DNA from: Psilocybe cubensis | Taxonomy: Eukaryota | Direction: 5' to 3' | Length of the DNA: 64,000 nucleotides | NCBI GenBank assembly: GCA_017499595.2 | Contig: CM038999.1 | Coordinates: forward strand, 1,178,001-1,242,000 | Part shown: positions 6,875 to 25,382 of the stretch, in pieces | Numbering within the stretch: the first letter of the stretch is position 1 | Layout of the letters: every line of letters starts with the position of its first letter | Made by a program: the position numbers and the translations under genes | Notes under the pieces: generated by a model | Seen by the model: only the letters and a program-made list of their open reading frames with translations | Database searches by the model: none | Told to the model about the DNA's origin: nothing

Positions 6875-9800
6875 TCAAAGCGCATCCGGCGAAATATCCC
6901 CAAGCGTATTCAACTCCCAATTCTCAAAGTTACTTCCAACCGCACTGAACCCGCTCGCAGATTTCGCATCATCTCCAAATTCAGAGCGCGAGTCGATCGT
7001 GTCCTTCATTGAAAGTTTGAATAAGTCAAAGTAGAAAAAAATAATAGACGTACATCAAAGTAATGCCTCAACACACTCCTCGGCGCTACAAAGAATCATT
7101 AATAAGGGAAAAAAAACAAAAGAGAATGAAATGAACACGTACTTCTAGGAGTCTTGGGCAACCTACAGCTCACACCGCTCTGCAAGATATGATACGCCAC
7201 AAGCCCACTCCACCCCGTCTGATGACTCGCTCCGAGACCTTTCCCGCTGTCCGCATGGAAGAACTAGTCACAAAAGAAATAATAATCAGCACCACACAAC
7301 CCAAAAGCCCAACACACAACACAAAAAAAACAACAAAAAAAACACACCTCATAAAACCACACATAATCCCTAAAATGCGGATCATAATCCAACTTTCCAT
7401 TGCCCCCATTCGTCGCTCTCCTCCCCTCGGCATCACGTCCAAAAATATGAATAATCCGATGCTGAATCTCCTCCGCCACAGCTACAAGGTTCATATACTC
7501 CCCTGAACCCGTCGGACACTCTACTTGGAGGTCGTCGCCGTAGTATTGGTAGAAGCGCTGGAGAGACTCGATGAGCAGGAAGTTGGTTGCTAGCCCTGGA
7601 AATAGTTAAGATTGTTGAGCATGGAAATGGAAATGGGAAGGGGAATGGGATAGAGGGAGGGTGTACGTACAAATCGGACCGCGCCAATTCGAATTCCCAC
7701 CAAACATCCCCGACTGCGAATCACCCGGCCAATACCCAACCTCATACCTCTGCCCATGCACATCGATCCCCCACGGATGCTCCTGATGCAGCTTCGAAAG
7801 TCTATTATTCACAGTTCAGTCAATGGTGTGTGTGTGTGTGTGTGTGTGTGTGAGTGAGGATGCAACCAGCATTTTAGCTCGAGTACGTACGATCGCACAC
7901 CATGCTCGCTCAAAAACTCGTTCTCGTCCAACATCTTTTCCAAAATCTTGACAAGCCGCTCTTTACTCGCAAGCGCTAAAAGCCTTCTCTGCTCTTTCCC
8001 ACCAACTATAAAAAGTTAACCCGTCAGCTCAAACCCACCCAAAAAACACAAACACAACCACAAAATCCAAAAAACCAAAAAGAGAAAGAAAAAAAGACCA
8101 AAAAAAAAAAAAACCAAAAAAACAACCAAAAAAAAACCCAACACCCACCTTTCATATTAGCCATATTCCTCCCCGCCGCCCCCGGCCTATTATCAACAAA
8201 CCACTCCATCCGCTTCTTAAACCCCGGGAACCGATTCAACACCGCCGGCTCCAACACAAGTGTCGCGTACAGGGGTATGAGACCGACGAGCGAGCGCACG
8301 GGGAGCTGGATGGAGTGGCCCGGGCCGAAAACGATGGCGTCGTAGTACATCCCGTCTGTTTCGTTCCAGAGCGAGCGCGATTCGTCGGTGGTGGAGGAGG
8401 AGTATGTCATGGCGTCTGCTATGAATATGAAGTGCTGTGAAAGTCGGCGTTAATGGTAATGGTAATGGTAATCGTACAAAGAAAAAGAAAACGCCGCACC
8501 TCGAAAAACTTGCTCGCAATATCCTCATAAACACTATTATGCTTCGCAAGCTCCAACGCAATACTCAACATATTCAAACAATAAAACGCCATCCACGCCG
8601 TCCCATCCGCCTGACGCAGCTCCCCACCCGTAGGCAACGGCTCACTCCTATTAAACGCCCCAATATTATCCAACCCCAAAAAACCCCCCTCAAAAACCCC
8701 ATTTCCCCCTTTATCCTTCCTATTAACCCACCACGTAAAATTCAACAGCAACTTTTGAAAAACCCGCTCCAAGAACCCCAAGTCCTCTTTACCCCCGTGC
8801 AGCTTGCGCTCGATTTTGAATACGCGGAATGTGGCCCATGCGTGGACGGGTGGGTTGACGTCGGAAAAGTTCCATTCGTATGCGGGGATCTGCCCGTCGG
8901 GTTTCATGTACCATTCGCGTGTGAGCAGGTCGAGTTGCTTTTTCGCGAAGGAGGGGTCGACGACGGCGAGTGGGATGCAATGGAACGCTGTATCCCACGC
9001 TGCGAAGAACGGGTACTCCCATCTATATTTAGATTTTAAAATAAGCGCCGGGCAAGGAAGAGGTAATATAAGTGACAAAAAAAAAGAAGCGCACTTGTCA
9101 GGCATACTCAACACATCTTCAACATGCATATGCCTCCACTCTCTATTCCTGATCCACTTCCTCTCAGGCGGCGGGGGCGGCTGCGCCGGATCACCCTCCA
9201 TCCACTCCTTCTGCACAAACCGATAATACTGCTTCGTCCACAACATGCCCCCAAACGCCTGCCTCATAATCTGCTTCAAATCCTCACTAATCGGGCCAAA
9301 CACAAAACTCGAGTAAAACTCATCCGCCTCCACACGGCGCTCTTCGAGCGTATCGTCGAATATCGTTTCGTCTTCTAGCGAGGGGTCCGCGGAGAGCCGC
9401 GAAGGTGTGAGTTTGAGTCGGGCGACGGCGCAGCCGCCGTGGCCCGGGACGTCAGCAAAGACGTACTGCGCGGCAGCCTTTGTCCCGCGCATCTCCGGGT
9501 TGACGAACGAGCCGGGTGTAGCAGGGAACGGGGTGCACGGGCCCTCCTCCACCACCTCCGGGCGCTCGTTCCCGAACAGCGACGCGGTGCGACTGCGAAT
9601 GCGCGGGGCGAAAAAGTCTTCTGGCTGCGAGGCCGACGCGGGCGGGCGGTGCGCTGGGATGATATGGTCGTGGAACGCGTCTTTGACGTAGGGCGTCTCG
9701 TTTGTCCCGCCGTATAGACGGCTAAAGTTGGTGTTGTTGTCGGTGAAGAGCAAGGCTGGCTGTACGACGTCTGCGCTGTCGTCGACTTCAAAGTCGGTGG

Positions 9801-11004
9801 TGGGCCCCACGGGTGGTGGGGAGGGTAGAGCGTAGAGGTGGGTTTTGCCGAGGGTCGGATGGCGGGCGGTGATGCAGCGGATTTCGTCTACGCCGCGCAC
9901 GGAGCCGGTGAGGGAAGGCATGGGTGGCTTTTCGAGGGGCCAGGACCAGGTGTTGGGGAACCAGAGCTGGGGGATGACATGCAGGGTGGCTGGATCTGGG
10001 CCGCGGTTGTAGGTGGTGATGCGGATGTAGAGATTGTCGGGCTCGTCCTCGTCTTTGGCGTACTAGGTAGATGTAAATAGGGGCTAGTAGATTAGATAAA
10101 AATGGCATACCTCGACAAAAACGTCCCAGTAGCGGTCTTCGTCAAAGGCGTCTGTGTCGAGGATTTCAAATTCTGCGACATCGCGTCCACGGCGTTGGTT
10201 TTCGTCGACGAGCTCCTCGTAGGGGAAGCGGCGCTGGGGGTACTTGTATAGAAACTTCATGTAGGAATGGGTGGGTGTGGAATCGAGGTAGTAGTAGAGC
10301 TCCTTGACATCCTCGCCGTGGTTTCCTTGATGACCAGTGACGCCAAAAAGGCGTTCCTTGAGAATGGGATCCTCGCCGTTCCAGAGGGAGAGACCGAAGC
10401 AGAGACGCTGGTGGTTGTCGCTTATACCTGCAATACCGTCCTCGCCCCAGCGATATGCGCGGGATCTGGCGTGTGCATGGGGGAAGTGGGACCAGGCATC
10501 GCCGTCCGCGGAGTAGTCCTCGCGAACAGTGGCCTGGGGTAGAGGTTAGCAAGGGCGGGGTAAGGCAAAGAGAGGACTCGCCCATTGCCTGTCGCTGAGA
10601 TAGGGCCCCCAGCGTTTCCAGTGGCGCTCGCGGGCGTCGTCTTGCTGGAGACGGTACTTTTCAGTGCCGATGTAGTCTGGACCGAGCTTTTTGGCGAGAC
10701 GCTCGCGGTAAGGGGGGAGGGGCTCTGGGGTGCGAGCGCGATTGTCGTCGTCTGGGGTGTTGGAGGAGGGGTCTGATATGCCCAACCCATCGAGAGCCTT
10801 GAGGGTGGTGTCTGGATCTGGTTTGGGAGAGTCAGAGGGTTTGGCGGGGGCAGACTTGCGGGGCGGGGGCGGGGTGGGGCTCTGAGCAGGCTTTGGGATG
10901 TGGATGGAGAGAGGGGTAGTGTCACGCGAAGGAGTGTCTGGAACAGAGCTCTGGGGAGATTTGCCAAAGAGGCGCTCCTGTACTTTGCGGGCAGCGCTGG
11001 CCAT
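6875..11004 (-). CDS. Glycoside hydrolase family 63-like (MGH1 / YMR196W-type) six-hairpin glycosidase
   Basis: Spliced motifs [90 protein letters not shown]. Stop TGA at 6875-6877 after DISPDAL. Confidence 0.9.
7826..7851. repeat. (GT)13 microsatellite within a GH63 intron
   Basis: Direct reading. Confidence 0.95.
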
Positions 11005-11114
11005 GGTGGTAGGAAAGAAGAGGTTATCGATGGAGAGTTGAAGGAGAATTAGAGAAAAGGGGATGACATCATTGGATCAAAACCGTGGGATGGTTGATAG
11101 ACGGTGTGGAACGG

Positions 11115-11138
11115 CAGCAGCAGCAGCAGCAGCAGCAG
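11115..11138 (+). repeat. (CAG)8 immediately upstream of the RhoGAP start
   Basis: Direct reading; lies in the 147-bp gap between two divergent ATGs. Confidence 0.95.
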
Positions 11139-11151
11139 AGCAGCAGCCACG

Positions 11152-14100
11152 ATGACGGACAGCACGCCGAGGGCGCATGTCTCCCCGCAGACTCTCTATC
11201 ACTCCTCTGCGCCAACTCCCCGCTCTTCCTCTCTTCCCTTTCCCTACCTCATGGGCCTCGCCCACTCAAAGCAGCACCAGCAGCAGCAGCAGCAACAGCA
11301 ACAGCCACAGACAAAAGGCATCAACCTCAAGCGCGCCTTTGCTGCTCGCCGCAAAAAAGAGTCTCCTGCGCAGGTCGCAGCTCTCCCGCCTACTCCCCCC
11401 TCCAAGGATACCGACAACAACAGGCACTCGGTCATCCCCCTCAGTCCAGGCATATCCTCCGCTGTCAACTACATCGCCCTCTACGACCAGTCTCCCTCTC
11501 CCTCAGAGCCACCCACCCAAAAGGACTCGTGGCGCAAGTCTGACTCTACCAACAGCCACCGCACAGTCCGCAATCCCACACGCTCCTCCCGCCCCGTATC
11601 ATGGGCAGAGTCCTTCCAGTCCGCACACACTGTCGTCCCCTCGGGCTCAGCCAGACCTCTCAGTGCCCTCATCGCAGATGCCGATTTTGGTGTCGCAGAG
11701 GAACTCGATGAGCAGGACGAGCGAGCCGAGCGACCAACTGAGCCGCGGACAGGAGCCGAGACCCATAGCGACGGCGATGATAACAGTAAATCCCAAACAC
11801 TCTCTTACCCCACACAGCCTACACCTACAACACCTACGCCCACCCAGACTAACCCATCATCAACCACTGCCCCTCCCTCCTCGTTCGCTACCACCCCAAC
11901 AACAACATCCCACAGACGCTCCCTCTCCCTCGACCACCCTCCTCCCACTCACACCCAATCCCATTCCCACCCACAGGGCCCAAACAGACTCCCATCGCAC
12001 TCCATCTCCGAAGGTGTCCCACGCCCCATGTTCCCGCACACACATACACAGCCAACAGCTGTAAGCCTGCACAACGCCCGTATCTTTCCAGTGTTGCCCG
12101 TCTCTTTGAGCCCGACTCCCAGCGGCTCCGGACAGCAGCAGAAACAGCAGACGCCGCTGCAGCCTCTACGGCCGAGCCATCAATTACATGGGCACGGTCA
12201 GGGGCACACCTCTTCAGCATCCGCATCGTCCACATCCACCACATCCACCACTTCTACTTCCACATCCACATCTGCATCTGCGTCTGCATCTACATCGTCC
12301 GCGTCATCTGCGTACGGCTCGGCATATGCATCAGCCTCAGGCTCCGCATCGTCGCTTTCAAGCCCAGGTCCCGGTCCCGGTCCAGGTACTCACGCACGGC
12401 CTCTCCCATCACATCCGCACCACGGACACGGAAATGCACACGGAGGATCTAAACCCCCTCCATCGGCATTTCCCTCCATGTCCTCCCCCTCCTCCTCCTC
12501 CGGCGCCCAGCTACACCCCCAACCACACCAGCTGCACCCGCACCAACACCAACACCAACGCACACAAACGACCTCAATATCAGGTCTCAACCCCGCTATA
12601 CTCGCAAAGCGCGCGGTGGAGGGTATGTCAGGCGGGCTGGGTGTACTCAAGATGAAGTTCGGTATGGGGTCGTCTTCTGCTTCCGGATCGGGGGGTGCGA
12701 GTCCTGGAGGCGCTGGTGCGGGGTCTGGAAGCGAGTACGAGAGAGAAAGAGAGAGAGATAGGGAGTGGGAAAGAGAAAGAGAGGTGGAAGGAGGATACTC
12801 CTCCTCATCTAGCAGTGCGGCGGTTAGACCAGCGGGTCCGAGCGCGTTCACATTTGGCAAAACCAAGAGCGCGTCGTCCGCCTCTGCTAGTGCACAGTAT
12901 GGGTACCCGTTGGGGAGAACGAGTTCGGGGTCTAGTGCCGGACACGGGCATACACAGGGGCAACAGGGACACACATACTCCAAATCGCACAGTCACTTTC
13001 TCTCTTCATCGTCTTCGCCTCCTTCCCATGCTTCCTCCCACCAACAACAACAACAAGGACAAGGCCATAGACCCGCACCCTCCATATCCAGCCTCTCCTC
13101 CCACACCCATTATGACAACCCAATCCAAAATGAAGGCCCGAACCTCGGTCGGCTCCTCCGCGGTCCATTGGTAAACACCAGTAGTGGGAAGAGGGGCACT
13201 GCAGGGATGGTGTTTAAGAGGGATTTGGGGCGGTGTGTTTATGAGACTGGTGTTTGGGTTGGTAGTGCAGGGGTTGGTGCTGGAGTGGGGAGAAAAGGGG
13301 TTGAGGGTGATAGCGCGTCGGTTTCTTCATCGTCTAGCGCTGCGCGGTCTTTATCCACCTCAGCTATCGGTTCAGGTGTGAACGCCAAAGACCCCGCCTC
13401 CTCCTCAAAAACCACCTCCTCCTCAAATCCCGCCAACTCCTCTCAACCCCCCTCATCCTCCAAACCCAACCAGCAACCAGACCAACCAGAATCCCAAACC
13501 CAAACCCAAACCCGACACCGCCTCGCCCTCATCCGCACCCTCGCAGACCCGTCCAAACGTCGTCTCCCCGCGCTGGTCGTAAGATGTGCGCAGCATTTGT
13601 TGGTGTGGGGTGTTTGTGAGGAGGGGTTGTTTCGGTGCGTTTTTTTTCTTTCTTTCTTTTTGTGTTGGTTATATTTTTGTGTTGGTTATATTTTATGTTT
13701 CTTTTCGAGTTCGAGTTGGAGTTGGAATTGCGATACTGACCACCTGCGTTTTTTTTGTTTATACAGAGTGAGCGGGATGCCGCAGCATGTGGCAAAGTTG
13801 AGAGCAGAGTTCGATGCTGGTGGGTACTCCTTTTTGCTTTTTCTTTCCCTTTTTACTATTACGAGTGCTTCTACGTGTCTCCTATTCTATTTTATACCGC
13901 GATTGCGGATTGCGGATATTGTGCTATGATGTGATGGGTACTGGGTACTGGGTACGAGGATGGCAACGCCTCTGCCTTTCTCGTTATCCATATGCATATC
14001 CGTATATGCCCTTTTTATTTCCCTTTCCTTTCCTTCTTATATCCCCCTTTTCATGTGTTAATGTATCACCGCGATGTGCGTGGATGGATGAATGTGTACA

Positions 14101-17100
14101 CCAGTGCGCTTGTGGATGGAAGATGGCGCTGGACGCTGGACTGGACGCTGGATCTGGATCTGGATCTGGATGTGCTCTGGATTATTTCAGATGCAATATT
14201 GCGGATGGGGCGGGTAGAAAGAATACAGCTAGACTCGTTCTAGTTTGGTCCTGGCTATTGGTACATGCGATGCGATGCGGATTCACATCGTTGTCATTCG
14301 CTTGGGCGACTTCTTTGCTTTCTTGCTTGATACTTGATACTTGCCACTTGATACTTGCTGTTTTCCTCTCTATCACCCGCATTGCGCTGCGCTGCGCTGA
14401 TTGCTCGAGATCAATTTTCTCCTTGCCTTGACTGACTGACAACTCGGGTTTTTCTATTTTTTTTTGGCGTTGACAGGATGCGACTACGACATGACAGAGT
14501 GTACACCGGGCGACCTGGACCCGCACGCCGTTGCGTCCGTGTTCAAGGCGTACCTGCGCGAACGTGCGTATCCCTCTTCCCCCCTCCTTTTTTCTGATGT
14601 CAAGCTGACGCTGACGCGGATGGACGTACAGTCCCAGAACCCATTCTCACGCAAAAGCTGCAGCCGCTGTTCGATGCGGCGGTGAGCAAGGAGACGAGTC
14701 TTAACACCAGCACCGCCGCCGCTGCCGCTGCGACACACATGCCCGTGCGCATGTCTGTTATCCCAGGCCGCGGGCTGCCAGCGAACCCCAAGTCAGGGCT
14801 GCCCAACAAACCCTCTTCGTCCTCCACATCCACATCCACCACTTCTTCTTCCTCCGCATCCAACAACAACAACAACAGCAACAGCCCACTAACAATGTCC
14901 CTCCCCCTCCCCAACTCCCTCCGCAAACCACCCTCCCTATCCACCCTCGCCGCGCCCTCATTCACCGGCATCCCCCCGCCCTCGCTCCAACTCACCCGCG
15001 CGATCCAGGCGCTCGTGGCGCTGCTCCCCCGGGAAAACAGGGATATCCTCCGCACGGTCGTTGATCTGATCAGGGCGACGGCGGAGCGGAGTAGGGAGAC
15101 GAAGATGCCGCTGAGCAACTTGATGCTGGTGTTTTGTCCGAGTTTGGGGATGACGCCGCCGTTGATGAAGGTGCTTTGTGAGGCGGAGGGGATTTGGGGG
15201 TCTGAGGATGAGGATGAGGATGAAAAAGATGAGGGTGATGGGGTGGAGGAGGGAGAGGAGGAGGAGGAGGAGGAGGAGGAAGATGATGTGATGGATATTA
15301 GAAGACGCACGGTTGTACCTGCAGACGCGTCAGCCGTCGCCGCTGCCCTCGACCATGACCACGATAACGACGTGCCACCGCCTACACCGGCCAAAGACGA
15401 TCTCCCGCTGAACATCCTCACGCGCCGCGCACCGCGCGGAGGAGATCTCGAGACGAGGAGTGTGGCTGGGTCGGATTACCATGCTTCGGCGGAGGGCGAC
15501 GACGACGCGAGTGCGAGTGCGTCGATGTCCTCTTCCTTTGCATCTATGCCTATCCCGGCTCCGCCTCCGCCTATCCCACCGCTGGCGCAGGGCAGACAGA
15601 CGCAGCTTAGCACCACGCCCTCCGTGCGCATCCGGCGGCGGCGCCAGGTCGTGTCGCCCGTGAGCAACACGAACACGAACGCGCGTGCGTCGGAGGTGCC
15701 GACGGTGTCGACGGTGTATCTCGACAGCCGCTCGGTTGTGAGCTCCGTGTCGTCGTTTGGTGGTGAGGCGGGGAGCGAGGAGAGTGATGGTGAGGAGGAG
15801 GATGAGGATGAAGATGAGGAGGATGAGGATGGGGAGGAGGATGAGCATCACCCGCCGCCTCCGCTCTCGGCGTCGGCCGAGTCGATCGCGACGCGGACGT
15901 CCTCGGGAAATCCGTCGTTTTCGCAACTTGAGACGTCAGCGGCGGCGGGTATATTGGCGGCGGATGCGAAGGAGAAAGGCGCGCATGGGCATGGTGGGTT
16001 GAGGTTGGAGATTGCGGATGTGGCGGGTGTGCCGCTGGAGAAGGGCATGATTGGCGGTAATGCTGGGTTTGCTGCGAACCCGAACGCGGCGGGTGGGGTG
16101 ATGAAGGGTGTGAACCCGTCAATGCTATCGCTTGCGTCTTCCGTTGTATCCAAGTCGAGCGCAGGTGCAGGCAAAGCGATCCAGTTCCCTTCGCGAGACG
16201 GCGCGCAGTCGCCTTACCACTTCTTCCCGCCCCCCGCGTCTGGAACTGGCACCTCGGCCTCAACGACAACGACTGGGGGCGATGCGACGAAGAGCAAGCG
16301 CCGCTCGATCCCTGTGCTCTCGCTGCCCAATTTCTCGCCGTCGATCGCCCCGCTCCTCCCGAACTTGTCGTCGTCGAACGCGTCGTCGCCTGCGGGGTCG
16401 CCGTCGCCGCATAGTGCGGGGTCGTTTAGCAGCGGGAGCGGGAATGGGAATGGGAATGGTGGTGGCTTTATCACCGGAGCGGTAGGACAGGAGAAGCAGG
16501 AGAAAAGCCTGTTGAGGTCGAAGAAGCCCTCGTTGCGGTTGTTGTTCTCGAAGCGCTCTGCGTCGTCGTTGACGGGTAATCGCGATAGGGATAGGGAGAA
16601 GGAGAAGGAGAGGATATCGGGCCCGATTATGGTTGTGCAGAGCTCGAACTCGACCTCGAGCTTGAATTTGAGCGCGGGTCCGAATCAGAGTCAGCAGATG
16701 CTTGCGCTGCAGCAGCTGCAGCACCAGATCCAGAGCCAGCATCAAAGTCAAAGCCAGAGTCTTGGTCTGGGTCAGAATCAGGGTCAAGGTCAGACCCCGC
16801 AGCCACGCACGCCGCGCTCAGCGAGCGACTCGTCGGTGTCGACGCCGTTGTCGGCTGTCACGGCGCCGCAGTCGCGGTCGAGTTTGATGAGTGGAGGCCA
16901 TGAGAGTTCGGGTGGTAGTAGTACCAGTACCGGCGGGAGTGGGAGTGGTACGGGGACGATGATGTTCCCGCCTGTGCTGGATACGCCTATTGAGGGCGGC
17001 GCGTTGGGGCTGGATTATGGATTTGGGGGGTTGAAAGAGGAGGAGGAGAGTGAGAATGAGAGTCTGAGCTTGAGCGCGAATAAGAATACGACGCAGAGCG

Positions 17101-17465
17101 CGCTGCAGCCTCCACAGCCGCAGCCGCAGATTGAATCTCCTCTTCTTACGACGGCGACAAGAAGGGCGGTCATCGGCCGTGGCACGATGAAGACTGCTCA
17201 GCAGAAGAGCGCCGCCGCCGCCTCCGCCTCCGCTGGTAGTTCTAGCAATGCACCATCACCATCTGCGACCCCGCTCTACCAACTTGGCCTACAAGCCTCC
17301 ACTAGCTCGTCGAATCTGTCTGTGACGTCCACTGCGTCGTCGCATCATCTAAGCTTGTTTGAGGACGAGGAGGATGATATGGAGGATTGGACGCAGAGCG
17401 TGTTGTTGGCTGCTGCTGATGTGGATGCGAATTGGGACTTTAGCAAGTCGTCGACGTTGGCGTAA
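11152..17465 (+). CDS. Large low-complexity RhoGAP-domain protein
   Basis: RhoGAP motifs over 4 exons: LPALVVRC..EEGLFR|VSG (arginine finger), DPHAVASVFKAYLRE|LPEPILT, LPRENRDIL..KMPLSNLMLVFCPSL. Introns ~13636-13766, ~13820-14476, ~14564-14631. Flanked by long S/Q/G/E-rich regions. Confidence 0.85.
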
Positions 17466-20122
17466 CTGTGGTGTTCTCCCTGGATTTTTTTTTGTTTTTT
17501 GGTTGGTTCGGTGTAGGGGCGTTTGAGGGCGTTTGGGACGATGCCTGGTGCATTTCATTGTGGTTTTTTGGGTTTGGGGTTTGGTAGGAAGAAAGGACGG
17601 AAGGAAGAATTGGTTTTTCTTTCTTTTGGATTTTTTTATTATTCATGCTTTATGGTGTTTTTATGTTCATGTTCATGTTCATTTTCGTCTTCGTCTTCGT
17701 CTTCGACTTCGATTTCGACTTTCATTTTCTCTTCCTCTTTTTTGTTGTTTTTTGATTATTTTTATATGCCTCTTTGATTTCCTTTTTTCATGTTTTTTTC
17801 TCTTTCTGCCACATCTACCTATACCCTCTGTTCATCATGATCGTTATCATCCATTATCTCATCATCATTGCTCATGGTTCAAATTGTCCTTTTTCTATCA
17901 TCACACCTATCATCACTGTTCACTGTTCATCACTATCATTACCATTCATCATTTTTCACACAAACATGATTAGTACATGCTGCATGCTACATGCCTTACT
18001 ACTTTCACCCTTTGCATTTTCTCACTCTTGCATCGCCACTGTTCTCTATTCACTTTTCTTTCACAAATTTATGTCTCTCCTCTTTTCCTCACATTGTGAT
18101 ACACACACACACTCTCTCTCTCTCTCTATCTCTGTTTTGGATCATATTAATTTATCACTACATTCATGCTTAACATATCAACATTACCATTTGTTCCACT
18201 ACAACTCACACAATCACTCATTTGTTTTGTTTTATGATTTTCCTTTTTTTGTCTTGCTTCAGTCTTCATCAATCTCATGATATGACACACACAATGACCG
18301 CACCTCACAGCCCTTCATAAATATAGTGTCATTACCCGCAGCATCACCATACAGTCTCACAGACCATTCACACTTTCTTTTTTTAGTTTCAGTGTTATGT
18401 TTTTTTTTGTTTTGTTTTTATGTTTGTTTTTCTTGGAAGTTGGAAGGTTGTTGGTACATTCTTGGACACTACTCTTTATTATTACTATTTTAAAGTTATA
18501 AGTAATCATTGATCAATCATTGGTATATATATCGTACCGCATGCAATTGCATTTTTTTTATTTTTTCGTCTGCCGGAATAAGAGAATCAGAGGCGATCTA
18601 GTGCTGGATTCCTCTGTCCTCTTGAGTTGAGATGTCACCAATTACACCGGCACGTATATTTCGCAAAAAAGTACCCATATCCGAGTAATCTCTATGTCAC
18701 CGAACAACACACCTATAACAATTGTGCTAGCCGATCCCGTGGCTTGCAGGCATTGCAGAACTGTGATAGGGGTAAGGACTAATCCATCGCAAGATAGAAA
18801 TCAATAGGCGATTGTTGAGATTGGGGTCGGCCAAAATGATCGGAAACCGGCCCACAAACATCGGCGCTTAAATTTCAATATGGCAGACTCAGGACGAGAA
18901 TTTATATATTAGTATGCCCACTCATCAACGACTTGTAAAATCATGTACACCGCAACCTTTACATACAGGCATTAATGTTAGAATGGATGGTACAAACCGT
19001 CAAGGTAATGAGCTTTGTAGATTTATTGAATGCTTTTAAAATCGTTGGCAAAGCTGAAAAATATATATTCGCAGTCAATGGGCTATGCCGGGTATTTTGT
19101 ATGATTATAGTGCGTTATAACTTACATTAAATTATGTACCAAAGAAGGAAGAGAAATCTACTATGAACCATTTCTCCTTTTTGAAAAATTCGTCGTGACC
19201 CTCAACAGTGCAGTGCAGGTATCTTGGCTTGGGAAAAATCGAGCAACCTCGACAGCAGGAATCTCCCCCTTGTCGTTTCGGAAGTGCTAAAGTTTCTCGT
19301 TTCAAAAGTGTATCATTCAGTCGCTCTGTTGTCTTAAAGGCTCAGTACGGTGGAAAACTTTAGCATGGATTCTAAAAATAGCGTAGCGGGTATACTTCCG
19401 CTGTTACAGTCGAGGCTGACCTTCCGGGCGCTAGGCAGTAATTACTAACACAGGGGGTTATGTAGTCTTTGAATCTCAAAGTGAAAGAAGAGACGTATGG
19501 TAATGGTGGGTGTATTATGTCTGAGAAAGTTTCAGGAAACTAGTATAGCCTGATAGAATCCCAACCATTAGTCTCGACCGTTTGCCCGCCAAATTGTTAA
19601 GTTCAAAATACAATTCTAAGTCCCTTTTCCCACGCACAGACATCCTATGAAAAACTGGATCATCAGATCTCGTGCCGACCGGTGACAAGACGCCCTCTGG
19701 ATGACCATCCATACTAATCTCAGTTCTAAACCAGGGACACCTATTTGCGGACACCTGCTATTGATGGACAACATTCCCCCGAGGAATCCATGATGTCGGG
19801 TTCCAGTACACAGCCTGTTTGGCAGAGCTTGAGCAGAGCCTTGGTGAGTGGGTTGATCGGTTCACTGTGATCAACATGTGAATTGGACAAAGCTGAACCT
19901 CACTCATAGATAAAAAAAATCATCCCTGTAAACCTGAGCCATACACCTTGCCATATACACGAGATTTATGTCGGCCCATCCGGATTTGTACTTGTTGCGG
20001 TAGCGTTCACACCTTTACGGAAAGTCGGTAGGACCCTGAATAATTCGTGGAACCTACCAACGACCCGTGCGCTGAAGCTCCACGAAACTCCGCTCTTGCC
20101 TTGCTCTTCTCTCTTTACACTC

Positions 20123-22050
20123 ATGCCTACTCTCAGTACGACCATCGAGGATACATCTCCAGTGATAATCTATTCTGGAAACGGCGGAGATTGGGTTGCA
20201 GGAAGCTCGACAAACGATAGCCTGGCTTCTCTGTGCGTAAACTTCATCCGTTTGAACTATACTCTATTAAACAGATGCATACTTGCGATAGATATTCGCA
20301 AGGGAGTTTTACTTTGACAAGTAGGAATAATGCCAATGCATCCTTCTCATTCTATGGAACTGGAGTGCAGATCTTTGGTGCGAAGAGGAACAACCATGGG
20401 CCGTATCAAGTTACTATAGATTCCACAACATATGCCCAAGTCAGCGGACAGGCAGCAGATCCTGGATCCTTCCAGACTTCTCTATTCTCTACTGTGGCGT
20501 TGACCAACGGATTCCATAAGGTTACTATAGTGAACCAGGGGTCCACATTTCTCGACATCGATTTCGTGCGTTTGTCGAGCCGCCATTCAGACGAACCAAC
20601 TGAAATTTATTGTGTGCCTTTCATAGATAACGTGGCAGACTCCTGTAGGATCATCAGATGAACCATTGCTATCTTCAACTATACAAGATTCAGAATCAGC
20701 CTTCGTATACACACCGGAATCAGCATGGAATGGGAGTCCACCTAATGTTGGGATGTTTTCTGGAGGTACTGGGCAGTACGTGAAGTATTTTTGGACATAG
20801 TATGATATGAACGTTGTCTTTAGCACTTCGACCACTGCCGGATCATCTGTTGAATTCACATTCACAGTCAGTGTTTTGGGGTTTCATCTACTTCAATGTT
20901 CTCATATTATCTGTTAGGGCAAGTTCCCATGCCAACTTCATGGTACTCTTTTTACATCCAACCCTTTGAAGGTTCTGCTGTGGAAATATTCGGACCAGTC
21001 GGACCTAGCGGTGCTGTGTTTTCAGCACAGCTAGACAGTAGCAATCCTACAAACTTCACTACCAATAAGCCGTATTATAGACCACAGCAGCTCCTCTTTC
21101 AGGCTGGAAACTTAGGCAACGGGAAACATACTGTCAAATTCATACAACAGTCTTGGGATAACTCTGCTCTGTCCTTCTCCATTGATTTTGCACAGGTTTT
21201 TACCACCCCGTCGCTACAGCAAAGGTCAGTAATGATGGATATCTTATTGGTAGACTCGTGTTAATGACTATATACCAGTGCCTCTGCAGGGTCAGACTTT
21301 TATGCATTTTCTGTGTCAACGAAGTACTAATATGGTTTACGAGAAGACTATCCGTAGGCGCTAAAACGGGTATTGCTATTGGAGTTGTTGCAATTTTAGC
21401 TGCGGCCATCGCTGCCCTAATCATATTTCTGCCTTCGAAGTATCTTAAGTTCTTCCGCCTGAAGGGAAGGTCTGTAGAAAAAGGCACAATTTCAGGGCCA
21501 TTCCTGTATCAACGAGTCAGTGGTGATTTGTCTGCGGGCATCCCGCCCCAATCAGCTCCCTATGGACGACCTACACACAGTGCACAACCATCTCAATCGC
21601 TGTCAAATTACACTCCTCCATCATCAGGCTTTCCTTCATCCGGTGGGACATATGCGCCCAGTTCAGATACATTGATTCAGGGCCCTAATGTATGTTTCGT
21701 ACATTTGATACGCCTTCTTCATTATGTGCCTGCGGCTTTCTGATATTGACTTTTTTCCACAGTCCCAAGTGATTTCAATACCATTCACTGCGGATGGAAA
21801 ATACAGACCTGATCTTCCCAGCACACCTCAACTCTTGCCACCACCAGGGACACGAAGAGATCCAACACCATCATCAAGTCGCAGTCACCTATCGGTGTTG
21901 CCTCCTGGAGCCGCTCAGCCGGGGGTGATTAGTGATGATGAGCTTGGGATGATTACTCAGGAGACGAGGCAAGGAACGTATATGACTCCACTACGTCGGC
22001 CAACTACTGCGAGTCTGGCTTGGACAGAGCCACCACAGTACCAACGGTGA
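20123..22050 (+). CDS. Single-pass membrane protein with two repeated galactose-binding-like beta-sandwich domains (paralog A)
   Basis: Two copies of an IEDT/IQDS..Y..W..F.F.G..V.IFG..G...V..D...H.V...IDF pattern; TM segment GIAIGVVAILAAAIAALIIFL; Pro/Ser tail ending EPPQYQR. Fold assignment is by resemblance only. Confidence 0.75.
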
Positions 22051-22891
22051 TGATATTGCAGCTACTTTTCCAGGTTTTTCTATCAAACTCGTTATCGGAT
22101 ATTTTATGGCTTATTTCCTTTGGCATCCAAACGACGACTTCAATAAAAATGACTATGACGATACTTATCTGCGATGGACGTACGTTGTATTTCAAGGGCT
22201 GCGGACCTTTCTTTTTTTCTTTCCTTTGACATGATAGGACATTTCCCCGTGGACATAATGTGATAAAGTAAATCCTGTATAACATAGTAGTTGAATAACC
22301 TGTGTGCGTGACAACGAACTGGAAGCATCATTTCCCTGGCAAAAAAGGTTTCAACTAGACACACATATTCACTGAGAGGTAGCAGTGAAGTTGGGAGGCT
22401 GGTCACGGAGATGAACAGCCGCTAAATGACCAGAGCTGAATATAAAAGCCCGTGTATTCAATTATAGAGCTCGAAAAATTGTCGACCAACACAGAATAAT
22501 GACGTCTGTGAGTAAAGCCGCATCCAAGTTAATTGACGCGCGTCCCATAGCGCGTCGCGGCGTCTCCTTGAAACCCGAAATTTGAGCAGATTTGGTAATT
22601 TTGCATCAAAACATCAGCGCCATCACTACGGCACTGAGCGGCATCAGACCCCTATTGCTGCCAAGTTCCTCTCAACCATCATCTTTATACCATCACGGTT
22701 CACCCCATCCCGCAAAAGCAGAATCTCCGACCTTACTGACTCACCACGGAGTCTTTAAATTTTCACGCGTAAGCGACAATCATAGAAAATCCCGTCCCAG
22801 GTTCAGACTTTGTGTTTCAATAATGATTCAGGCAAGTATTTAACGATGGAACGAATTCACCGTATTTCCTCAAAATTGCTGGTCAATTAAC

Positions 22892-24665
22892 ATGCCATCG
22901 TTTACAACGCTACTTGAAGATACTTCGCCGTTACTTGTCTACTCGCAGGCGAACTGGCAGGCTGGAACCTCAAATGGAGATGCTTTATTCGACAAGTCAG
23001 TAAATTGTCTAAATTTTGTCAACATCTACAATAGTACGACAGTTAATTGTGCTAACCCCATACCACTTTTCGTTATCAGATACTCGGATGCATCTTTTAC
23101 TCTCTCTCAGACGAAGGGTTCTACTATGACTTTTGGGTTCAATGGAACTTCCATATCTGTTTATGGCGCTAAACGAGGCAACCATGGTCAATATAACGTC
23201 ACGGTTGATAATTTCGAACCAACAACAGGTAGTGGTGCTTCAGATACGGAAACGTTTCAGCAGCTGTTGTATAGCTCTGGAAATCTGAGGTCAGACTACC
23301 ATAATCTGACGCTGCTTAACGTCGACGGGAGATTTCTAGATGTGGATTTTGTGAGTGGCTTTTCAATGCCTTTCCTTTTGTTATTAAATTACACACTTGA
23401 CAAGATCACATTTACGACGAGCGTTGGTCGAGACGATGAAGACATGATCATCAACACTTTTCAAAATGGCCATCCTGCATTCTCTTATAATCCCTCCTCA
23501 TCATGGAAGACGCCGAGTCAAGTTGAAAGATTCATGGGTGGCTCAGGCCAGTGCGTGAAATCTTCATCTTGACAACGACGAGGCATAAACTAATCAGTGC
23601 CAAATCCAATCAGTGCTACAACAGAATCTGCTACAATGACGTTTACATTTCAAGTACGCCGACTTACTTGTACTTGAGATAGTCGTTAATATATCTGACC
23701 ATTCTCTATTTGTGTATCGTTCAGGGTCAATATTTATCTTATTTTATATTGCCTTTATCCAGCGTGTTGATCAAAGGCGATTAATATAGGGGATGCAATT
23801 GCCCTCTATGGTCCAGTTGGTCCTTCTGCGGCATCGTATACCGTCCAGATTGATGGTGGTTCCACGATGCTATACGCTGCAAACCGGGTAATTTACAGGT
23901 CCCAACAAGTGCTATATTTTGCCAGCAATCTGGGCACAGGTATACACACCCTTCAAGTTCAAACATCATCAGCATCCGGCGAATTTGCTGTTGATTACGC
24001 CACAGTATACACAACAAAATCTTTGGGAGGAAGGTGAACATTTACAACACAGGATTTTGCCGAATCGAATGTTGATTGTGTCTTGCAGTCTGCTAACCGA
24101 TTCTGCAGTGCCAGTCGGCAACAGTTCAACTACCCCCGGGGAAGCAAGGTGATTTGGACGAAGTGGTATTTTTTTTGACAAAAAAAACTCATCATCATCA
24201 AACTTCCTTTTTAGAGTACTTTATAAAACCCCGGTAATCGTTATCATAGGCTTGGCCGGAGTGTCCGCCATTCTTTTATTCATGATTTTGGGCTGCATCT
24301 TTCTTACAGTACGCCTGCGCCGTACACGAAGATCCATGGACAAGTTACTCAGAGTTGGCGTTCTGGATCCTGAACTCGAAGCCACTGTACAACCATTTCC
24401 GGTCGAGTATCATTCTGTCAGCAGTAGTCAAAGCTTACTTCCTCGAAGTGGTACACCAAGTAGTGGAATCACGCATGTCATGCAAGGCACCTCGACAGAT
24501 AATGTCAATGGAGGTTTTACAACTGTTGAGCTAATTGCTCCGGGAAGAGCGCTTGTTAGAGAGGCAAAGTTTCCAAATGGACATACACCTAATCCTAGTA
24601 TTGCTAGCTCGAGTTCATCACATCTAGCCGCGCCACCACGATATCAACCAATGGATCCTCGATGA
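22892..24665 (+). CDS. Single-pass membrane protein with two repeated beta-sandwich domains (paralog B)
   Basis: Collinear with paralog A (MPSFTTLLEDTSP vs MPTLSTTIEDTSP; GAKRGNHG vs GAKRNNHG; FLDVDF vs FLDIDF) and shares intron positions; TM VIVIIGLAGVSAILLFMILGCIFL; tail APPRYQP. Confidence 0.75.
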
Positions 24666-25382
24666 TATAGAAGGAAAAGTAGTCAACACTTGATTTATTG
24701 TCCTATTTTGTATTATTCCTAAACAAAATGTATGCCCCTTGGGCTGGCTGTAGCTTTAATGTTCAATCCAAAGATTGAAAAGTGTTAAACTGGTTGACAG
24801 TATGCCTATTATCACCAAACTTGATGGTCATACAACCTACACATGTAAGTCTAGACATATACCAAATGTCGAGGCGCAGTGAGGATAAAAACACTCTTTG
24901 GCTGTCAGGGTTACCTTTCAGATCTGAGTGTGTTTCTACTCTACAGTATCAAATACCACAGATTAGTACGTATGATAGAAAGCCAGCGGCTGGTGGTATA
25001 ACCCAATGCGGTTTTTGTTATATACATTTTTGCTACACTGTACACGGTGGAATCATCCATATACACCAAATATCTCGTGGTGGTGGTGATAATGAATTTT
25101 CCAAGGATGGTGATGATGGATGTTGTATAATCGCTACAATGCAATAGGGTATATTAATTGAGTGGTGGTGACGTGAGAATGAGTGAGTTGATGTTGCTGG
25201 AGGTATTCATATGTTTTCGCCTAGATATCTGCATATCACAAAACGGTGAACGAGGGTGATGAATTTCGATAGGCAAGGAATGCGCGGGGTTCCGGGAGGA
25301 CGCGCTCTGAGTTCCGTCGGGCCTGCGTGATCCGACGCCGAGCAAGCATAAGTTAAGAAAAGATCGAACCGCAAAACAAGAT

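Follow-up and report, generated by a model that had tools for sequence, protein, structure and literature searches.

Can a single nucleotide serve as an exon? The question is raised by two tandem paralogs, here called A and B, encoded on the forward strand of a 64,000-nucleotide (nt) stretch of Psilocybe cubensis DNA (NCBI GenBank assembly GCA_017499595.2, contig CM038999.1, positions 1,178,001 to 1,242,000; hereafter “the window”, whose own numbering is used throughout). Both genes share the same twin-intron layout at the same codon, with one G standing between the acceptor of one short intron and the donor of the next. We find it very probable that these bases, G20918 in A and G23725 in B, are genuine constitutive 1-nt exons that each provide the first base of an invariant glycine (Gly) codon between two ordinary short spliceosomal introns, and, as part of the same reading, that the membrane-protein family concerned is specific to Basidiomycota. 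No further copy of the paralogs was detected in the window by tblastn, and no Rfam match was found in it.

The original prediction, which was made from the sequence of the window, had placed the twin introns of paralog B at 23654..23789, and upon re-reading the sequence we found its coordinates and motifs to be exact. The core at the one-base exon of B is CAG/G/GT, in which the acceptor AG and the donor GT flank the G, and that of A is TAG/G/GC. To see how these sites are spliced, we drew on five sequencing runs of one organism, X1 to X5. Runs X3 to X5 carry 92–96% of the sampled words, X1 44% and X2 32%. Runs X1 and X2, both from one study, are labelled only as guessed RNA, and we treated them as RNA-derived because their contigs lack every intron that is kept by the DNA runs X3 and X4. 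Over positions 20000–24800 the X1 and X2 contigs skip every intron of A and B, with GT..AG ends, including the remaining introns of the two genes (48–84 nt), which are removed at GT..AG. The X3 and X4 contigs are collinear with the window, show no splice joints in A or B, and list no difference at either one-base site.

At the junction in A, the preceding exon ends in TTC ACA at 20866 and the next coding bases, GT TCT GCT, begin at 20972. Runs X1 and X2 each provide one contig that joins 20865 to 20970, skipping 104 nt and reading TTCACA-G-GTTCT; the coordinates of the X2 record are contiguous across the joint (860 to 861), thus nothing else lies between. At the junction in B, one X1 contig (depth 13.7) joins 23652 to 23788 and skips 135 nt, with two letters that fit either side. 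It reads TTTCAA-G-GGGATGC, the very junction (TTTCAA-G followed by the downstream exon) that had been foretold for the complementary DNA (cDNA) of B, and the reading frame continues as GG GAT GCA ATT from 23790. The competing form named by the original prediction, a 123-nt intron ending at the AAG acceptor at 23776, was seen in no contig. Across both junctions the 1-nt form is the only one seen, in contig data that drop rare variants. Other candidate splice forms are contradicted by the lengths of the skips: in A, the 104-nt skip disagrees with use of a GTGTTT donor 4 nt downstream (giving FTFT-VS-SAVE) and with a 29-nt intron (adding GKFPCQLH), the latter being the form adopted by the public protein model P0127, and in B the 135-nt skip disagrees with a shifted donor, GTACTT, 16 nt downstream. 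A recursive site with a zero-length exon was also rejected at both junctions, as one G separates AG from GT or GC at 23725 and 20918.

Spliced sequence alone cannot tell which G is retained; it is very probably the central one, because comparative DNA conserves AG/G/GY, and its placement is the sole one that gives canonical ends. For the comparison, an alignment built on the downstream exon was used to search metagenome contigs, which gave 33 related loci; 32 of them cover the upstream region, and L031 does not. Two short introns around AG/G/GY are found in 27 of the 32 loci. Four others (L004, L006, L012, and L030) are fully spliced and cDNA-like, being intron-free over 579–768 nt upstream and reading F-x-G-x directly, and the remaining locus, L017, keeps a single upstream intron. 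In the 27 loci together with A and B, the upstream introns measure 47–76 nt and the downstream introns 48–65 nt, lengths in line with those of the remaining introns in both paralogs.

To avoid counting near-copies, we sorted the 27 loci by similarity of the intervening sequence into 15 groups, which with A and B make 17 distinct genes; intron lengths in the 17 representatives span 48–76 nt. All 17 carry the AG/G/GY core, against a summed expectation of 0.42 from shuffled sequences (mononucleotide shuffles with the first six and last three bases fixed, success being an AG/G/GY with both halves of at least 40 nt; frequency of 0.6–5.3% per gene, 3.4% for B and 0.9% for A). The downstream exons of the distinct genes are 32–88% identical in pairwise comparison, with a median of 45% (16 genes; L032 was omitted, with only 21 residues matched), and those of A and B are 39% identical. 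The twin introns of A and B have identities of 0.51 and 0.45, not significantly above their shuffle means of 0.41 (standard deviation 0.07) and 0.37 (standard deviation 0.08). Thus, the earlier observation that the introns of the two paralogs lack visible similarity holds, and the core and its codon position are kept in both genes despite introns that cannot be aligned. It had further been proposed that the structure predates the duplication and is under selection. Both proposals are supported as far as these data can test them: A and B are only 39% identical and the same core recurs in loci as divergent as those above, and within the intervening sequence only the core and its codon position are conserved, around a Gly that is invariant in 40 of 40 aligned relatives. 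The suggestion of twin introns at the F-x-G codon throughout the family likewise agrees with their presence in 27 of 32 loci and in all 17 of the distinct genes, A and B among them. The arrangement is therefore ancestral to the A/B duplication and family-wide, and it is probably old.

Two of the related loci are informative about splicing itself. The blocks that flank the junction in the intron-free L012 are 100% identical to those of the genomic locus L013 and 97.7–99.6% identical to those of L011. Relative to both, L012 lacks 103 nt (53+50) and keeps one G, and the genomic downstream donor is of the GC type (GCGAGG). This pair represents a second organism and a different data source from X1 and X2. 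Like the four cDNA-like loci, L017 has a long open frame upstream (630 nt), followed by one 56-nt phase-0 intron and then directly by G+GC GAG. It lacks the upstream intron 3, for which a candidate is present in 25 of the 27 two-intron loci (CA/GT pattern); in L032 and L033, judged by eye, intron 3 follows a different dinucleotide. Two readings of L017 offer themselves: an RNA spliced in part, from which the downstream intron is gone while the upstream one remains, or a gene that has lost its downstream intron. Because L017 keeps the upstream intron alone, ending just before the G, we consider the upstream intron to be a self-contained unit.

The upstream donor is always GT (GC in 0 of 17 distinct genes), whereas a GC donor opens the downstream intron in 6 of the 17, paralog A (20919) among them, and in 9 of the 27 loci (L011, L013, L018, L019, L021, L023, L024, L026, and L028). 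GC donors make up about 1% of fungal introns. Within one near-identical group, L029 has GT where L018, L021, and L023 have GC. A G occupies donor position +5 in 16 of 17 upstream introns and in 9 of 17 downstream introns, and the last base of the upstream exon is A in 14 genes and G in the other 3. The strict branch-site motif CTRAY is present in 8 of 17 upstream introns (3.2 expected) and 10 of 17 downstream introns (3.4 expected); the branch A of CTGAC in the upstream twin intron of B lies 26 nt from the 3′ end.

The proteins encoded by A and B consist of two weakly related N-terminal domains of about 130 amino acids (aa) each (in B, BLASTP E = 3e-4), one transmembrane helix and a Ser/Pro-rich tail. 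The domains are putatively of a carbohydrate-binding-module-like beta-sandwich type, with the Gly of the one-base exon in the second. The downstream exon of B has 444 relatives at E ≤ 1e-3 among 1.84 billion representatives searched, and the motif around the junction is F-x-F-x-G-D-A-x-x-L-Y-G. In 40 of 40 aligned full-length relatives three residues never vary: the junction Gly, a Phe two positions ahead of it and a Gly seven positions past it. The exons of A and B in the window fall short of the cut-off for every Pfam family. For CE2_N (PF17996; cut-off 27.9 bits) the exon encoding domain 1 of B scores 18.3 bits, and the relatives P0002, P0026, and P0042 score 20.8, 20.7, and 28.0 bits, respectively. 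Two family members carry the source names “Carbohydrate-binding module family 35 protein” and “alpha-D-galactosamine galactosaminidase”. Matches in the ESM Atlas are hypothetical proteins of Basidiomycota, with CE2_N in 12% of one cluster, and a PDB sequence search returned no solved structure related by sequence, only noise over the transmembrane region. The C-terminal cytoplasmic tails of A, B, and their relatives end in a conserved PPxY-like motif (PPRYQPMDPR in B, EPPQYQR in A, consensus PPxY). Such motifs are of the kind bound by WW-domain ubiquitin ligases such as Rsp5.

The same data could be read in other ways. The intervening sequence might be one long intron (135 nt in B, 104 nt in A) with one non-canonical end, in which case the central AGGGY would have no role; the intron would run GT...TA in B and GT...AA in A if the last G is kept, or TA...AG in B and TC...AG in A if the first is. 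We consider this very unlikely, although each of the three possible positions of the cut agrees with the spliced contigs. It requires non-canonical dinucleotides that differ between A and B, and it leaves unexplained both the occurrence of the core in every distinct gene and the normal-length halves with a donor consensus (+5 G) of their own; in L017, moreover, the upstream half stands alone as an intron that ends right before the G. Less likely still is that the main product of B uses one 123-nt intron (23654–23776), encoding FQ-AINI-GDAI. Such an intron is in frame and has canonical GT..AG ends, and contigs can hide isoforms; however, the sole B contig across the site skips 135 nt, and the form would add four residues to a motif that is free of insertions in 58 canonical predictions for the family (see below) as well as in the 40 aligned relatives. 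The equivalent option in A, where only a 29-nt intron is in frame, is contradicted by the RNA contigs.

A nested spliceosomal twin intron (stwintron), with the whole intervening sequence intronic, would also involve two consecutive reactions at one site, and signals that overlap by a G are known for the fungal [D1,2]/[A2,3] type (PMC5587772). Stwintrons leave nothing behind, however, whereas one base stays in the messenger RNA (mRNA) here. An internal [D1,2] intron is impossible given that the bases after the first G are TA in B and TC in A, and the downstream intron sits one base outside the upstream acceptor rather than interrupting it; we regard this explanation as hardly credible. The same low standing applies to an artefact, either RNA contigs that were wrongly assembled or a genome assembly that is off by 1 nt. 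The evidence does consist of assembled contigs rather than raw reads, but the A junction was recovered in two runs, the X3 and X4 DNA agrees with the window at both sites, and the layout recurs in 27 independent loci, with a separate cDNA/genomic pair showing it as well.

We therefore return to two introns separated by a one-base exon, against which several observations nevertheless count. The junction in B rests on one contig of one guessed-RNA run, in which the letters between the ends of the joint are not resolved, and contigs can conceal minor isoforms, including partial use of the acceptor at 23776. The upstream intron also begins with a G and the downstream intron also ends with one, which is how the spliced sequence comes to fit three cuts. 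Strict CTRAY is missing in 9 of the 17 upstream introns and in 7 of the 17 downstream ones, among them both twin introns of A and the downstream intron of B. L017 may reflect loss of the downstream intron rather than a splicing intermediate. Finally, the hints about the order of removal conflict, as the A at the end of the upstream exon favors removal of the upstream intron first, and L017, if it is RNA, favors removal of the downstream intron first.

How might the spliceosome remove two introns that are one base apart? The upstream intron is in phase 0 with a GT donor, and the downstream intron in phase 1 with a GT or GC donor. U1 pairs with donor positions −3 to +6. The first acceptor AG thus lies inside the U1 footprint of the second donor, so the two introns would not be processed at once but sequentially. 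Such stepwise removal would proceed under intron definition, two spliceosomes being excluded by the overlapping 3′ and 5′ splice sites of AG/G/GY. If the upstream intron leaves first, the G would join the upstream exon, whose final A (in 14 of 17 genes) would recreate AG/GY, and the donor context would change from AGG/GY to xAG/GY. If the downstream intron leaves first, the G would join the downstream exon behind a normal YAG/G acceptor. The central G is doubly fixed, both by its place at the start of the GGN codon and by the preference for this base after an acceptor and before a donor. Guo and Liu argue for the same stepwise removal by intron definition in Arabidopsis APC11, and the downstream-first order is reported there for a 9-nt exon of potato invertase (PMC4674806).

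The original prediction had also held that gene predictors may mis-annotate this structure, and public models of the family confirm that they do. P0127 (NCBI and UniRef, named “A type blood alpha-D-galactosamine galactosaminidase”) and P0153 (UniRef) are both Psilocybe cubensis models of paralog A, and both are 100% identical to the RNA-based model except at two junctions. At the one-base exon they are wrong in different ways: P0127 inserts eight extra residues by way of a 29-nt intron (FTFT-GKFPCQLHG-SAVE), and P0153 reads through with 19 extra residues. Both also omit the 12-nt microexon at 21279–21290. No public model of paralog B was present among the homologous-protein matches, in which only two longer hits occurred.

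We then classified the junction in the 150 best representatives of the family by regular expression, so that the counts are approximate. The junction is canonical in 58 of the 150. Ten carry the signature F-x-F-x-V-[S/R/G/C], which arises when the exon is extended by 4 nt into a GTNAGT donor, mending the frame, and three have an insertion after the Gly. Together these amount to 13 representatives with signs of frame repair. A further 36 are otherwise aberrant (upstream exon missing or read-through), 27 are short calls of the open-reading-frame type that start just upstream, nine start inside the exon, and seven are not scorable. All but one of the 27 short calls end in G, as expected from read-through of the acceptor AG/GG. 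Among the 107 longer predictions, the same expressions scored 58 as canonical and 49 as not.

By their source names, the proteins with the V signature come from Agaricales (Gymnopilus, Coprinopsis, Marasmius, Pleurotus, Mycena, and Collybia), Boletales (Coniophora and Boletus), Jaapiales (Jaapia), and Hymenochaetales (Rickenella). This spread, which is seen in protein models and not in DNA, is a hint that the structure arose long before A and B duplicated. On the strength of the frame-repair signature, we lean slightly toward the view that the one-base exon is an ancient feature of the whole multi-copy family, predating the divergence of the Agaricomycetes orders; if so, no known 1-nt exon would be more widely replicated.

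One-base exons as such are already known from Arabidopsis APC11, Fusarium CYP621A, and Coprinopsis cinerea, with which we compare the present family. The closest in taxonomy is Coprinopsis cinerea, a member of the same order (Agaricales) that shows the same phenomenon: its long-read annotation lists “1 nt, 13 exons in 13 genes” and notes that omitted microexons break gene models (PMC12230235). In its accessible part that paper gives counts and is silent on gene family, conservation and mechanism; what the present family adds is replication in different paralogs and species, along with GC donors. The 1-nt exon of the Fusarium P450 CYP621A, which was confirmed by RNA reads, is conserved in orthologues and was called the first in a fungal gene (PMC12940212), also has an AGGGT core, a single G in a conserved Gly codon, and an intervening length about twice that of a usual intron. 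There, however, the G is the middle codon base in one orthologue group of an ascomycete genus, whereas in the present family it is the first codon base in many paralogues (32–88% identical) of Agaricomycetes, with a GC downstream donor in 6 of 17 genes. APC11 shares with our family a constitutive 1-nt exon, mis-annotation in databases, and intron definition with stepwise removal as the proposed mechanism; it differs in being a plant gene whose exon was experimentally proven, by mutation and a reporter that found the identity of the base immaterial (PMC4674806). Stwintrons of the [D1,2]/[A2,3] type (PMC5587772) are likewise fungal, are removed in two consecutive U2-type reactions and have a one-G overlap, and their relatives have canonical introns one nucleotide apart, but they are wholly intronic, whereas here the phase-0 and phase-1 positions are both occupied and one base is exonic.

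Literature searches on 1-nt exons, on Agaricomycetes microexons, and on Psilocybe cubensis microexons yielded no description of the 1-nt exon of this family, and the accessible part of a Cryptococcus transcriptome paper contained nothing on 1-nt exons. In recursive splicing at AG/GT ratchet points with zero-length exons, which the APC11 paper also mentions, a first event regenerates the 5′ splice site for a second. The likeness lies in a 5′ splice site that is remade by the first event and used in the second; the difference is that recursive splicing leaves no base and acts on long introns, whereas the introns here are about 50–70 nt and one base is left. New in the present case, which is unusually well replicated, are the conservation across many paralogues and species, the GC downstream donors, the A-ending upstream exon and the documented failure of public models. 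The features of both paralogs are collected in Table 1.

Table 1. Positions of the features of paralogs A and B in the window, with the evidence for each.
Feature	Position	Strand	Evidence or remark
Coding region of paralog A (490 aa; 9 coding exons, two of them of 1 nt and 12 nt)	20123..22050	+	All introns bridged by X1 and X2 contigs
A, upstream twin intron, 51 nt, GTCAGT...TGTTAG	20867..20917	+	Sequence and removal in RNA contigs
A, 1-nt exon G, base 1 of Gly codon GGT	20918	+	104 nt (51+53) missing from the X1 and X2 contigs
A, downstream twin intron, 53 nt, GC-AG type, GCAAGT...TTGAAG	20919..20971	+	Sequence and removal in RNA contigs
A, 12-nt microexon (TGCCTCTGCAGG)	21279..21290	+	Letters between the ends of joint 21224 to 21346; same gene, separate from the 1-nt exon structure
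Coding region of paralog B (438 aa; 8 coding exons, one of them of 1 nt)	22892..24665	+	X1 RNA-type contigs span every intron
B, exon 4, 40 nt, ending TTT ACA TTT CAA, phase 0	23614..23653	+	Joints 23550 to 23614 and 23652 to 23788 in one X1 contig
B, upstream twin intron, 71 nt, GTACGC...CTGAC...TTCAG	23654..23724	+	Absent from RNA contig
B, 1-nt exon G, base 1 of Gly codon GGG	23725	+	135 nt (71+64) removed, one G kept; AG/G/GT core conserved in relatives
B, downstream twin intron, 64 nt, GTCAAT...ATATAG	23726..23789	+	No strict CTRAY
B, exon 3′ of the junction, starting GG GAT GCA (G-DAIALYGPVGPS...)	23790..24033	+	X1 contig piece 23788–24031

Some further observations concern the two genes and their surroundings. 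The 12-nt microexon of A, found in both X1 and X2 RNA-type contigs, is flanked by introns of 54 nt and 56 nt (21225–21346); it encodes part of SLQQ-SASAG-LSVG and restores the frame. The 5′ part of B has a 63-nt GT..AG intron (22769–22831) that abuts an 88-nt GC..AG unit (22832–22919, GCAAGT...TTGAAG) with zero bases between them (TTCAG/GCAAGT). One X1 contig shows the 63-nt skip alone, and another shows the 88-nt skip alone, with loss of the ATG at 22892. The abutting pair at 22831/22832 thus has the layout of a zero-length exon with alternative use; joint removal of the two units was not seen in the X1 contigs, hence no two-step use was seen there.

Within intron 1 of B, at 23028–23035, the X3 and X4 DNA contigs break: each side continues into unmatched sequence, the two sides overlap by 8 nt, and the loose contig ends resemble imperfect inverted repeats. 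These breaks suggest a mobile-element insertion with an 8-bp target duplication in the strains of X3 and X4 that would be absent from the window. The X1 contigs over B (22700–24550) list 20 differences from the window, eight of them within 23215–23311, while over paralog A they are nearly identical to it; the differences over B suggest a divergent allele or strain. Elsewhere in the window, positions 8000–18000 have a GC content of 0.54–0.59, compared with about 0.45 elsewhere, and contain long open frames. These include one at 8419–9921 on the reverse strand with an MGH1-like glycoside hydrolase domain, one at 14682–17465 on the forward strand with a RhoGAP domain, and a 941-aa frame at 11104–13929 for which no Pfam match was found.

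For gene annotation, the family provides a rule: where a phase-0 donor faces a phase-1 acceptor about 100–140 nt away, an AG/G/GY core should be sought between them, which would mend broken models. For splicing, it offers many naturally occurring, independent cases of an exon that could not be smaller, in a short-intron organism, and is therefore a practical system for asking in what order the introns are removed and whether the central base is needed. It could further reveal why the GC donor is accepted at so high a frequency (6 of 17 genes). Two intron positions that lie one base apart and have stayed co-occupied through many duplications bear, in addition, on how introns are gained, lost, and shifted. 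If the one-base exon is indeed an ancient feature of the whole family, its numerous natural replicates, in which the downstream donor is GT or GC and the upstream exon ends in A, could be used to study how the spliceosome handles an exon that is too small to be bound.

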